A stretch of 64,000 bases of DNA from an uncultured Actinomycetes bacterium (GTDB lineage: Bacteria; Actinomycetota; UBA4738; HRBIN12), in contig CAVPIB010000019.1 in assembly GCA_963704885.1 (NCBI GenBank), positions 15,588 through 79,587 of the forward strand, written 5' to 3'. The position numbers and the translations under genes were made by a program. Position 1 is the first letter of the stretch. Each line of letters begins with the position of its first letter. Shown piece by piece: positions 10,194 through 60,768 of the stretch. The notes under the pieces were generated by a model, which worked only from the letters and a program-made list of their open reading frames with translations, made no database searches and was not told the DNA's origin.

Positions 10194-10242
10194 AGGATCC
10201 GACAGCTCGAAACGAGCACATCGAGAACGCACGCAGAGAACG

Positions 10243-10315
10243 CGCGCCGGGGAGGATTCGAACCTCCGACCCGCGGATTAGAAGTCCGCCGCTCTGTCCC
10301 CTGAGCTACCGGCGC
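10243..10315 (-). tRNA. tRNA-Arg(UCU), copy 1
   Basis: Cloverleaf GCGCCGG..., anticodon loop CTTCTAA, GTTCGAATCC T-arm; no encoded CCA. Confidence 0.96.
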
Positions 10316-10361
10316 GAAGGACAAGAGCCTAGCCGGTGTGCTCTGGCTCGCGCCTCATCAG

Positions 10362-10434
10362 CGCGCCGGGGAGGATTCGAACCTCCGACCCGCGGATTAG
10401 AAGTCCGCCGCTCTGTCCCCTGAGCTACCGGCGC
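10362..10434 (-). tRNA. tRNA-Arg(UCU), copy 2 (identical to copy 1)
   Basis: 73-nt exact duplicate offset by 119 nt. Confidence 0.95.
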
Positions 10435-57230: not shown

Positions 57231-57303
57231 GGGCCCATAGCTCAGCTGGTAGAGCGCTTGGCTGGCAGCCAAGAGGTCCGGGGTTCGAATCCCCGTGGGT
57301 CCA
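57231..57303 (+). tRNA. tRNA-Ala(GGC)
   Basis: GGGCCCA acceptor with G3:U70, anticodon loop CTGGCAG; TAGACT upstream. Confidence 0.96.
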
Positions 57304-57613
57304 CCGCAACACCGCAGGTCAGAGGCGGTACAGGCACCGAGCACGCGCGACGGTCCGCGAAGAAGGGCACGAAACGGGCAAGAGAGAGCCGCAGAGCTCT
57401 CCGACGCCCCCCAGGCAAGCTCAACCCTGAGAACGGCTCCTGAGCCCTCTCAGCGCCCCGGAACGCGCAACCTCGTCGCGTGGAGCCTCAGCCCATTCTC
57501 AGGGCGCTCCGCCGATCCATCAGGCCGGATTCAACTCCCCCCGTCGTTCGCCCGATACTGTTTGCGCAGGTCAGTATCCGAATAGGCATATAGGAGTGGG
57601 TGCCTTACGCTGG

Positions 57614-57647: not shown

Positions 57648-57675
57648 GGGGCCCCGGGCAACGAGGAGGACAGGA

Positions 57676-57912
57676 ATGCGAACCCATACGTACGAGCGGA
57701 ACCGTGACGGCGTCATCGAGCCGAGCGGCAGCGTGCGTTGGGAAGGCCCCCGCGTGACGAGTGGCGCCTCGCGGCACTTCGGTTGGGAACTCGCCTCGCG
57801 GATCGAAATCGTCCAGAGCGCGGAGGCAACTGGCACGCCATTGGAGCCTGGCCGTGCGGGTCGCGAGGCGATCCACGACTTCGGCGAGGCCCTCGATAGG
57901 CTCGCCGAGTAG
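57676..57912 (+). CDS. Putative antitoxin for Doc-family toxin
   Basis: RBS GAGGAGG; 78 aa; C-terminal helix EAIHDFGEALDRLAE resembles Doc-neutralising tails; directly upstream of Fic gene. Confidence 0.6.
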   Translation: MRTHTYERNRDGVIEPSGSVRWEGPRVTSGASRHFGWELASRIEIVQSAEATGTPLEPGRAGREAIHDFGEALDRLAE

Positions 57913-57913
57913 C

Positions 57914-58360
57914 GCGACCAACTACCTCGACTTCCAACGGGCCGCGCTTGAGATCGGCGAAGCACGTCTGGAGGCTGAGCGGATTGGTCAGCCGCGACGT
58001 GCGCCGCCGGTCCCTCTAGAAGACTGCGAACGCTCGACCATCGAATCCGCCCTCGCAGCTCCCAGGCACACCGCCGGTGGTCTGGACCTCCACGAGACTC
58101 TCCCCGCCAAGGCTGCCGCGCTGACCTACGCCTTGGCCCGAAGCCAGGCGTGTATCGACGGGAACAAACGCATCGCGCTGATCCTGCTGACGGTGTTCGC
58201 CAGGATGAACGGCCACAAGCTCGTGGCAACCAACGCCGAGGCGGAGGAGATCATCAGGAGGGTGGCCGCAGCCGATCCGTCTAGGCGGGTGCATGACCAG
58301 CGCATGCTGACCGCGTGGCTCGACGAACACCTCGAAAGGGAGGGGATCGATGAACCTTGA
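57914..58360 (+). CDS. Fic/Doc family protein with variant motif SQACIDGNKR
   Basis: IESALAAP, KAAAL, DGNKR, F..MNG Doc features; start codon unclear. Confidence 0.82.
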   Translation, partial: ATNYLDFQRAALEIGEARLEAERIGQPRRAPPVPLEDCERSTIESALAAPRHTAGGLDLHETLPAKAAALTYALARSQACIDGNKRIALILLTVFARMNGHKLVATNAEAEEIIRRVAAADPSRRVHDQRMLTAWLDEHLEREGIDEP

Positions 58361-58775
58361 GTGGATGCTCCTCGCCAACCATGCCGAGGACCAGGGGGGG
58401 CTGCTCTACCTGTCGGGAGCCACCTGGGACACAGTGACCGTCGGGGCGCCGACGCCGGCAGAGCTCCCAGACATTGTCGCCCTGTTCCAGGGTTACCTCG
58501 TGATTAGGTTGCTCTTCCACCCCACCGAGACTGGTCGGGAGCACACCTTCCAGGTCACCGTTATCGACGAGGACGGCCACGAGCTACAGACGTTTCGGGG
58601 GTCATTGCCGGTCGAGCGAAACGACAAGCTACTCCCCGGTTGGGATCAAGGCGTCCACATCATCCTTGGGCTCAACGGCATGCCGCTACCGCACTTCGGC
58701 AACTACGAGTTCAGCCTTCAGGTGGACGGTCAACACCTGGGGGATCGTCCGTTCCGGGTCGTGCGAGGTTACTAG
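58350..58775 (+). CDS. DUF6941-like protein
   Basis: MLLANHAE..GLLYLSGATWD...PLPHFGNYEF.L.VDG pattern; overlaps Doc stop by 11 nt. Confidence 0.72.
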   Translation: MNLEWMLLANHAEDQGGLLYLSGATWDTVTVGAPTPAELPDIVALFQGYLVIRLLFHPTETGREHTFQVTVIDEDGHELQTFRGSLPVERNDKLLPGWDQGVHIILGLNGMPLPHFGNYEFSLQVDGQHLGDRPFRVVRGY

Positions 58776-59595: not shown

Positions 59596-59765
59596 ATCAT
59601 CGTCGGGCAAGGGCACCTGGTGGCAGCGGTGGTCGCGGTTGACCTACATATTCGTGGCGGTCCATGCTCACCGCACGCACTCCAGGGAGGGGCCACCATG
59701 CGCCGCGCCGCGCCGCTGCTCGCGATCGTGCACGGGATCCCAACAACGCGAACCATCCTCGCGGC

Positions 59766-60768
59766 GTGACACCTGACACCGCCGTCCTGAACGACGATGC
59801 CTTGTTCGCGGTTGTCGATGTCGAGACGACGGGCTTCTCGCCCTTGGTTGGAGACCAGATAGTCGAGATCGCGATCCTCCGCCTGGCAGCGGATGGGACG
59901 GTTGTCGACGAGTTCACGACCCTCGTGAACCCGCGGCGCGACGTCGGCCCCACGCACATCCACGGGATCAGCCAGGACGACGTCGCGGCGGCTCCGACCT
60001 TCCACGAGATCGTGGGAGACGTGCTGGCTCGGCTCCGTGATGTGGTCCTCGTAGCGCACAACGCGAAGTACGACCGCGACTTCCTGGCCACCGAACTGTC
60101 CGCCGAGGGCATCTTCCTGCCGGCCCTTCCCGGCCATCTGCACGCTGCGGCTCTCCTATCGGCTTCACCCGGACCTCGGCAGCCACAAGCTCGCGACGTG
60201 TTGCGAGTGTGCGGGGATCGCCGAAGCCCCGTTCCATTCCGCTCTCGAGGATGCGCGAGTCACATCTCGCCTCCTCATGGCTTACGTGGCCGAGGCGGGG
60301 AGCGGTGGGATGGGCGTCAACGATCTGCTCGAAGGAGGAAGCCTTACGTTCCCGAGCACGTGGCCGGAGTTCCCGCTCACCGGACGGACCGTGGCGAGGT
60401 CGTCGCGCAGCACCGCCCGCCTAGACCCACCGTATGTCGCGCGACTCGTCGCCGCCCTCCCGCCGATCGAATCTGACCTAACCGTCGCCCCGTACCTCGA
60501 TCTGCTGGATCGGGCGCTCGAAGACCGTCGTGTGACGCTTGAGGAAGCTCATGCCCTTGAGATCACGGCTTCCGCCTGGGGCCTGACCAGGGAACAGGTA
60601 GTGGGGTCGCACCTGAGCTACATGGAGGCGCTCGTCGCTGTCGCGTTGGACGACGACGTCATCACGTCGGCCGAGCGGAGCGATCTCGATGATGTTGCCC
60701 GCTTGCTAGGCGTCCCGATGGGAACGCTTGACGGGCTCATCGTCGCTCGGACCACTATGGCTACATGA
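59766..60768 (+). CDS. DEDDh (DnaQ-like) exonuclease fused to TerB-like helical domain; frameshift near 60135
   Basis: DVETTG, AHNAKYD, then ICTL...HSALEDA in second frame; DRALEDRRVT..E and DDVITSAERSDL TerB-like repeats. Confidence 0.82.

Follow-up and report, generated by a model that had tools for sequence, protein, structure and literature searches.

What does a Doc protein do once its catalytic histidine is gone? Doc is the textbook case of a Fic-fold enzyme that turned into a kinase, and its catalytic His is regarded as indispensable. The question is raised by a locus in the window, the whole 64,000-nt stretch of contig CAVPIB010000019.1 analysed here, where three co-oriented reading frames on the + strand (57676-58775, Table 1) encode a small protein, a Doc-family protein with Gln at the catalytic position, and a protein of the DUF6941 family. 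This three-gene content had been proposed from the letters of the DNA alone (hereafter, the sequence-only reading), and it was confirmed by the reading frames and by Pfam matches. We read the locus as a horizontally acquired three-gene operon, namely a toxin-antitoxin-like module of the Phd/Doc type with an obligate third gene, and we give this reading a probability of about one half.

Glutamine at the catalytic position of a Doc clade

The motif was found exactly as claimed by the sequence-only reading, SQACIDGNKR with the Gln codon at 58145-58147. This Gln aligns with the catalytic His of canonical Docs and of the E. faecalis Doc 9vzc, leaving the Fic motif, canonically H-x-F-x-(D/E/N)-(G/A)-N-(G/K)-R, without its His, and Cys (58151-58153) occupies the canonical Phe position of the motif. 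The remainder, IDGNKR, in which K marks the Doc type, is kept. Searching 5.8 billion proteins by word index gave 277 candidates, 62 of them matching at E≤1e-3, and the window protein was aligned with its 20 best non-self homologues (42-59% identity). Over those 21 rows, G, K and R were invariant, D and N were kept in 90% or more, Cys was found in 21/21 and Gln in 20/21, the one exception being P0015, which has His. More distant matches carried the canonical N-H-(P/A)-(F/L)-x-D-G-N-K-R.

When 1.84 billion representatives were searched with a profile and without filtering, 9460 matches were obtained at E≤1e-3, 20 of which were at E≤1e-30. Among the best 150 of the 9460, about 32 were of the Q-x-C type (QAC 25, QRC 4, QSC 1, QPC 1 and one off-register QAC) and about 18 of the H-x-C type (HAC 12, HPC 4, HCC 1 and one off-register HPC). 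HPF (29) and HAF (22) represented the canonical triplets, the remainder being mostly H-x-F/L, together with a few other triplets and some rows lacking a motif match. In a quick maximum-likelihood tree of 133 rows, 34 of the 35 Q..C rows fell in one group of 36 rows, with the H..C rows beside it and one inside it, and the few Q..F rows were placed apart from this group, in the second main branch; SH-aLRT values of the key groups were 86-89, which is below the mark of 95. A search for Fic proteins with QACxDGNKR, suggested as a check by the sequence-only reading, therefore leads to a coherent clade, with those roughly 32 Q-x-C proteins among the best 150.

DNA was available for 14 Q-x-C loci, comprising the window, one locus from a GTDB genome (L004, an uncultured Actinomycetes metagenome-assembled genome) and 12 metagenome loci. 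The Gln codon was CAG in 12 and CAA in 2 of them, the Cys codon was TGC in 12 and TGT in 2, and a codon comparison of related loci gave more synonymous than non-synonymous changes in all three genes. His and Gln codons differ at the third base only, yet Gln persists among proteins at 50% identity or lower, which argues that it has been selected. As these alignments and codon comparisons show, a whole conserved clade under purifying selection has Gln in place of the catalytic His. The clade was not represented in 400 other Actinomycetota genomes, where the 29 best non-self Doc loci had His in 25 cases, Pro in one, no motif match in three, and Q-x-C in none. The Pro case (L018, G178:C2) is a Doc of the canonical branch reading R-N-P-A-L-V-D-G-N-K-R, and is unrelated to the Q-x-C clade. 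Four relatives in IMG/VR (27-34% identity) had the canonical His and were without DUF6941.

A second Cys (58025-58027), aligned to Lys of 9vzc, is nearly invariant in the clade. Counting rows with the N-terminal anchor, it was present in 37 of 40 rows of the x..C type versus 4 of 95 in which the motif position is F, L, M or W; as those rows are kin, the contrast should be taken as a pattern rather than as a statistic. The exchange of an Arg/Lys-Phe pair for a Cys-Cys pair points to a compensating contact pair, as far as aligned residues can tell. Among the best 150, 18 sisters that retain His (HAC, HPC and HCC) also have the motif Cys, which therefore predates the loss of His.

The Doc frame matched Pfam Fic PF02661 (E = 9.9e-8, 33.2 bits vs a cut-off of 24) and PHROG 577, annotated as a Doc-like toxin (2.3e-14), and a profile of the clade found 9vzc in the PDB (8.6e-15). 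AlphaFold2 (AF2), run with the clade alignment, gave a model with a predicted local distance difference test (pLDDT) score of 93.9. The top five rows of a Foldseek search of the PDB were all P1 Doc, 3kh2, 3dd7 and 3k33 among them, with template modelling (TM) scores of 0.63-0.77 by target length and weak E-values (0.04-0.08), and the further top rows were all Fic proteins. An intact all-helical Doc-type fold, which had been asserted beforehand, is thus supported by the model. According to PADLOC 2.0, the Doc frame weakly matches the Fic-containing candidates PDC-S23 (1.3e-7), PDC-M59B and PDC-S04; no PADLOC 2.0 model matched the small open reading frame (ORF) or DUF6941.

The conserved three-gene order and the start of the Doc gene

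In 12 of the 14 Q-x-C loci, the Doc gene was followed directly by DUF6941. The two exceptions were L046, in which the Doc gene is cut off by the contig end, and L044, a truncated remnant, so that DUF6941 was present in 12/12 loci having both an intact Doc gene and downstream DNA. In L044 (1-342) the Doc frame breaks off at about 100 residues, and next to it, in place of DUF6941, comes a gene that looks GFA-type by eye; we regard it as a decayed copy of the module. The small ORF was found by script in 11 loci, fragments in L039 and L044 included, and additionally in L042; L037 and L040 have no upstream DNA, and a counterpart was thus present in every Q-x-C locus where such DNA exists. The proposal that the three genes co-occur, put forward as a check on the locus, was borne out. 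Since gene order and motif recur in 13 loci beyond the window, the arrangement is more than chance. Doc-DUF6941 spacing varied from -19 to +9 nt across loci, and DUF6941 was preceded by a GGAGG of its own. Small adjacent co-oriented genes in conserved pairing are the layout expected of type II toxin-antitoxin systems.

The small ORF is conserved over its C-terminal 25 or so residues (G.R.A(V/I)..(F/Y)(G/S).AL.RLAE) and variable in its N-terminal part, and nine small ORFs could be aligned only over those last ~25 residues (G(S/T)P..G.R.AV..y.eAL.RLA). The ORFs end in AL.RLA(E/D)(S/A) and a stop codon, 8-18 nt before the Tyr codon of Doc YL(D/T)F. Synonymous differences exceeded non-synonymous ones (15:8, 24:11 and 13:4), which indicates a real coding gene. 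No match to the small ORF was obtained in Pfam, NCBIfam, PADLOC or PDB, and Protein Atlas gave it only scores under 0.8. An antitoxin-like C-terminal helix joined to an unfamiliar N-terminus had been suggested for this protein, and the data agree in showing a conserved helix-like C-terminal segment and no match to a known family.

The sequence-only reading had placed a 1-nt gap between the small ORF and the Doc gene and an 11-nt overlap between the Doc gene and the DUF6941 gene. The latter overlap is indeed 11 nt. The 1-nt gap did not hold: position 57914 begins a GCG codon, and the closest start codon in frame is GTG 57854. The ATG of the small ORF sits 6 nt past its GAGGAGG. The Doc frame is open over 57761-58360, with the conserved Doc body beginning at about 57914-57923 (..NYLDF). 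GTG 57761 and GTG 57854 are the only canonical starts 5′ of the motif in this frame, and there is no ATG, GTG or TTG between GTG 57854 and GTG 58192. GTG 57854, which has GGAG at 57843-57846, 7 nt upstream, is also the start of the stored gene call P0002 (168 aa), and initiation there results in a 59-nt overlap of the Doc gene with the small ORF in a different frame.

In 4 of 11 loci (L035, L036, L045 and L046), no ATG, GTG or TTG was present from the upstream in-frame stop to 60 codons beyond the conserved Tyr of Doc, and a CTG was found 2 or 4 codons before this Tyr in 8 of the 11. In the window and L043 a canonical start is available inside the small ORF instead. The N-terminal stretch of Doc showed coding-type divergence, with synonymous to non-synonymous ratios of 9:2 (L038/L042) and 15:9 (L045/L046), and it forms a confident helix in the AF2 model from residue 7 of the ..ATNYLDF.. 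form. Because the conserved N-terminus follows no ATG, GTG or TTG in several loci, we infer that translation of Doc is coupled to that of the small ORF, and this could occur by reinitiation or by initiation at CTG.

Fusion of the two proteins by read-through of the stop codon was also considered, and was rejected. The two frames coincide, with one stop between them, in only 6 of 11 loci, which makes such a fusion unlikely; they differ in 4, and one locus is cut at the contig start. Several of the in-frame loci are close kin, and a consistent recoding signal was not found in them. A scan of the module for promoters, terminators and upstream inverted repeats gave nothing over shuffled background.

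Table 1. Positions of the module and of the neighbouring tRNA gene in the window.
Feature	Position	Strand	Basis or remark
tRNA-Ala(GGC)	57231..57305	+	ARAGORN; read as integration site
Small upstream ORF (78 aa, ATG), antitoxin candidate	57676..57912	+	ORF; GAGGAGG at 57663-57669
Doc-family gene, Q-x-C clade (168 aa from GTG 57854)	57854..58360	+	Pfam Fic, PHROG, AF2, Foldseek
Second clade-specific Cys (E-D-C-E-R)	58025..58027	+	Replaces Arg/Lys of canonical (I/L/V)-(R/K)-D
Altered Fic/Doc motif R-S-Q-A-C-I-D-G-N-K-R	58139..58171	+	Gln CAG 58145-58147; Cys 58151-58153
DUF6941 gene (141 aa), all-beta Ig-like sandwich	58350..58775	+	Pfam PF22091; own GGAGG upstream

DUF6941 and the genomic setting of the module

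The third gene was assigned to DUF6941 by Pfam PF22091 (E = 4.3e-23, 82.5 bits vs a cut-off of 27), and its Protein Atlas neighbours were all DUF6941. The AF2 model (pLDDT 95.8) is a ten-strand beta sandwich. Fold searches returned generic Ig-like sandwiches only (Foldseek TM≤0.53; VIA-align Z≤10.2, a range rated as common), and the sequence families matched were DUF6941 and, weakly, DUF3859. DUF6941 was present in 108 of 401 Actinomycetota genomes versus 0 of 14 control genomes, tallies that include four genomes flagged as unpublished. Of 30 DUF6941 loci that were fetched, 24 matched the window protein by tblastn (24-36% identity), and no relative of Doc or of the small ORF was found beside DUF6941 in those 24. 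The gene directly 5′ of DUF6941 encoded pterin-4a-carbinolamine dehydratase in 9 of them and purA in one, the rest being mixed enzymes. Present in over a hundred genomes and mostly in housekeeping neighbourhoods, DUF6941 is not specific to toxin-antitoxin systems. Copies linked to Doc belong to a tighter subfamily (66 proteins, 45-67% identity) that is at most 36% identical to the 24 other Actinomycetota copies compared. DUF6941 is thus probably a general-purpose protein, one branch of which has been recruited to the cassette.

Two further observations concern this family. In L049, L050, L055, L057, L061, L063, L064, L068 and L069, DUF6941 is directly 3′ of the pterin-4a-carbinolamine dehydratase gene, often with a 4-7 nt overlap; these loci largely belong to the family coded f15, in which DUF6941 occurs in 21 of 21 genomes, and the two genes look like a conserved pair. 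A longer, fused form of DUF6941 (P0281, 315 aa) was encountered as a single match and rejected, as its N-terminal ~170 residues are unlike Doc or the small ORF and the ORF call is probably over-extended.

The sequence-only reading had put the three genes at an island edge, and comparison with related genomes agrees with it. Synteny with three genomes of the same genus (G157, G354 and G170), followed by DNA and tblastx comparison, ends at 57317, just past tRNA-Ala(GGC), and neither a Q-x-C Doc nor DUF6941 is present in those three. The cassette is the beginning of a strain-specific island at this tRNA gene. A 92% repeat of the 3′ part of the tRNA lies on another contig of the same assembly (G000:C8:4005-4064), which indicates that the island runs off the contig. 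Partial repeats of the tRNA 3′ part were also found in relatives, three on one contig of G170 (C52) and one in G157 (C10) at a distance of about 57 kb from the tRNA, suggesting that tRNA-Ala(GGC) is an integration hot spot in the genus. In L035, a fragment of a terminase large subunit (54-1163; phrog_9, 2.1e-22) lies about 1.4 kb 5′ of the small ORF, which places that copy of the module in a prophage remnant.

Other genes near the module are given here for completeness. About 1.3 kb 3′ of it in the window (59664-60768) there is a DEDDh (RNase_T) exonuclease gene matching the PADLOC candidate defence system PDC-S48, which is split over two overlapping frames. ORF 59664-60476 covers positions 5-114 of the PDC-S48 profile and ORF 60277-60768 covers positions 187-316, as would result from a frameshifted gene or an assembly error. 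Just 5′ of the module in L042 (1907-2599, - strand), a divergent gene encodes a 230-aa protein that may be a regulator with an N-terminal ribbon-helix-helix domain, based on a weak RHH_1 match and a PHROG transcriptional repressor match (8.3e-5). Farther away in the window, two tandem tRNA-Arg(TCT) genes, 45 nt apart, are located at 10242-10434 on the - strand.

What the module may do

The module shares with Phd/Doc of phage P1 and of E. faecalis (9vzc) the Doc fold, D-G-N-K-R, a small upstream partner with a conserved C-terminal helix, tight coupling of the genes, and a location on mobile DNA. It differs from Phd/Doc in having Gln for the catalytic His, Cys for the motif Phe and a second clade-specific Cys, in an upstream protein that is not of the Phd/YefM family, in the DUF6941 gene found in 12 of 14 loci (all of those with an intact Doc gene and downstream DNA), and in several loci that have no canonical start codon for Doc. 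Tripartite toxin-antitoxin-chaperone (TAC) systems, reportedly described by Bordes in 2011, carry a SecB-like chaperone. The three-gene layout, with a downstream third gene accessory to a type II pair, is similar to that of TAC, whereas DUF6941 is an Ig-like sandwich that matched no SecB family by sequence, and the class of toxin differs. SecB was absent among the fold matches listed for DUF6941, and a chaperone-addiction extension was not identified in the module.

A Doc clade with Gln for His has been reported before, in silico only, by Khater and Mohanty (2015, Sci Rep, PMC4454073), whose clade D2 of 45 sequences has the motif Qx[F|Y]x[D|E][G|V]NKR and is argued there not to be dead. The Q-x-C clade resembles D2 as a single-domain bacterial Doc with Gln at the catalytic position that is retained under selection. 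It agrees with the D2 motif at Q, D, G, N, K and R, and departs from it at the third position, where Cys (21/21) stands in place of Phe or Tyr; it is set apart by this published motif and by the place of the Q..F rows in our quick tree. The passages of that paper dealing with D2 do not mention DUF6941 or a three-gene context. It was the only relevant match in a literature search on replacement of the Doc/Fic His by glutamine; searching "death on curing" together with "pseudoenzyme" found no paper, and DUF6941 as a term was not found in the literature searched. The description of the locus as an undescribed tripartite system has therefore to be divided. A Gln-for-His Doc clade was already known from that in silico report, and the Q-x-C clade and its link to DUF6941 appear undescribed. 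As for the small protein, Ernits et al. (2023, PMC10440598) report, in the part relevant here, that a short C-terminal helical element, Phd-C, on unrelated N-terminal scaffolds suffices to neutralise Doc. The small ORF, with ~25 conserved C-terminal residues behind an N-terminal part of low conservation, resembles this arrangement, although Phd sequence similarity was not detected in it, and binding to Doc is putative here.

Taken as a toxin-antitoxin-like module, the operon might work as follows. The small protein would neutralise the Doc-like protein through its conserved C-terminal helix, in analogy to the portable Phd-C. The Doc-like protein would still be growth-inhibitory; that a coupled small partner with its conserved C-terminal helix has been kept suggests a continuing need to restrain it. 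By analogy to Doc and EF-Tu, it might act by nucleotide-dependent binding to a translation factor, or by slow or altered phosphotransfer to it. The retained D-G-N-K-R indicates that binding of nucleotide or phosphate still matters, and the loss of the general base suggests that the chemistry has been slowed or changed. DUF6941 would be an accessory partner, serving as adaptor, stabiliser or sensor, that was recruited from a widespread housekeeping family. A complex prediction for the small ORF, Doc and DUF6941 scored 0.00 against a mark of 0.32; it was run without controls and is counted neither way.

Several findings weigh against this interpretation. With Gln for the general base, the classical kinase mechanism of Doc should be lost or strongly weakened, and toxicity is assumed. 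The score of the Doc frame with NCBIfam TIGR01550 (DOC_P1), 35.3 bits, is under the cut-off of 38.65. Membership of the small protein in Phd/YefM was not obtained, as its nine members gave no relevant family at E≤1 and Phd chains in the PDB were not matched even at E≤10. DUF6941 occurs mostly in housekeeping neighbourhoods, so its function may be independent of Doc, and the same polar residues are conserved in it across contexts. Searches of 50,697 phage records, 72,556 plasmid records and IMG/VR turned up no copy of the module and no close relative. Among sequencing runs, one DNA run shared a small part of the sequence words, and no RNA run was listed. Also, loci from the same study are near-copies (L041 is equal to L042, and both are close to L038), and the number of independent observations is therefore smaller than 14.

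The chief alternative is that the Q-x-C Doc is non-toxic and catalytically dead and joins the small protein and DUF6941 in a complex that binds nucleotide and serves regulation or sensing, for example as a switch reporting the level of ATP or an alarmone, or phage proteins, rather than as a poison with its antidote. This is possible, and we hold it doubtful. In its favour, the general base has been lost clade-wide while purifying selection still acts on D-G-N-K-R and the rest of the fold, Phd/Doc modules do not usually have an obligate third gene, and much the same point has been argued for the Gln clade D2 in the corresponding part of PMC4454073. However, the coupled small partner with its conserved C-terminal helix, present in every locus, looks like a neutraliser that is needed, and islands at tRNA genes and a prophage-remnant neighbourhood fit selfish or defence cargo. 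A more specific proposal, which we think unlikely as a whole, is an obligate tripartite system of a new type, in which the His-less Doc would use a different chemistry or act as a nucleotide-gated non-catalytic switch, DUF6941 would be the effector or sensor, Doc would be made by termination and reinitiation at non-canonical codons, and the system would have an anti-phage or addiction role on actinobacterial islands. It is quite improbable that DUF6941 is a co-transcribed passenger with an unrelated job of its own, which would reduce the functional unit to a two-gene pair. Each DUF6941 gene has its own Shine-Dalgarno sequence, and the spread of the family over 108 of 401 Actinomycetota genomes (0 of 14 controls) and varied housekeeping neighbourhoods would be in keeping with such a passenger, but its position directly 3′ of Doc in all 12 eligible loci, across 43-67% protein identity, is not. 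The closeness of the Doc-linked subfamily (45-67% vs at most 36% to the 24 others) likewise speaks for a joint role, as does the absence of the Q-x-C Doc and its linked DUF6941 together from the 400 other sampled genomes.

Cys-centred chemistry, in which the motif Cys would be the nucleophile or redox centre in place of His, is very unlikely in our view. It would account for the invariance of the motif Cys (21/21), and the second conserved Cys could form a redox or metal site with it. Against it, the His-bearing sisters share the Cys, so that it was there before the His-to-Gln change, it occupies the buried position of the canonical Phe, and it co-varies with the Cys that replaces Arg/Lys. For these reasons a lone catalytic Cys, as the sequence-only reading had raised with its possibly Cys-based chemistry, is unlikely on the alignments in the form proposed. 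A decayed or mis-sequenced Doc gene among chance neighbours would explain the missing His and the low DOC_P1 score, but is refuted by substitutions common to close homologues, synonymous codon variation, intact frames and conserved gene order. The statement that one sequencing error could not explain the motif, and that the locus represents a conserved subfamily and not a decayed copy, thus stands.

The toxin-antitoxin-like operon with DUF6941 as its third gene is real and conserved as a module, is of moderate surprise, and is accessible to standard toxin-antitoxin assays. It offers a natural setting in which to ask what Doc does without its His, since Gln has been kept under selection, the phosphate-binding loop and the partner have been kept, and a third gene has been gained. 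Genome context thereby also offers a first way into DUF6941, a family that about one in four of the sampled Actinomycetota genomes carry.

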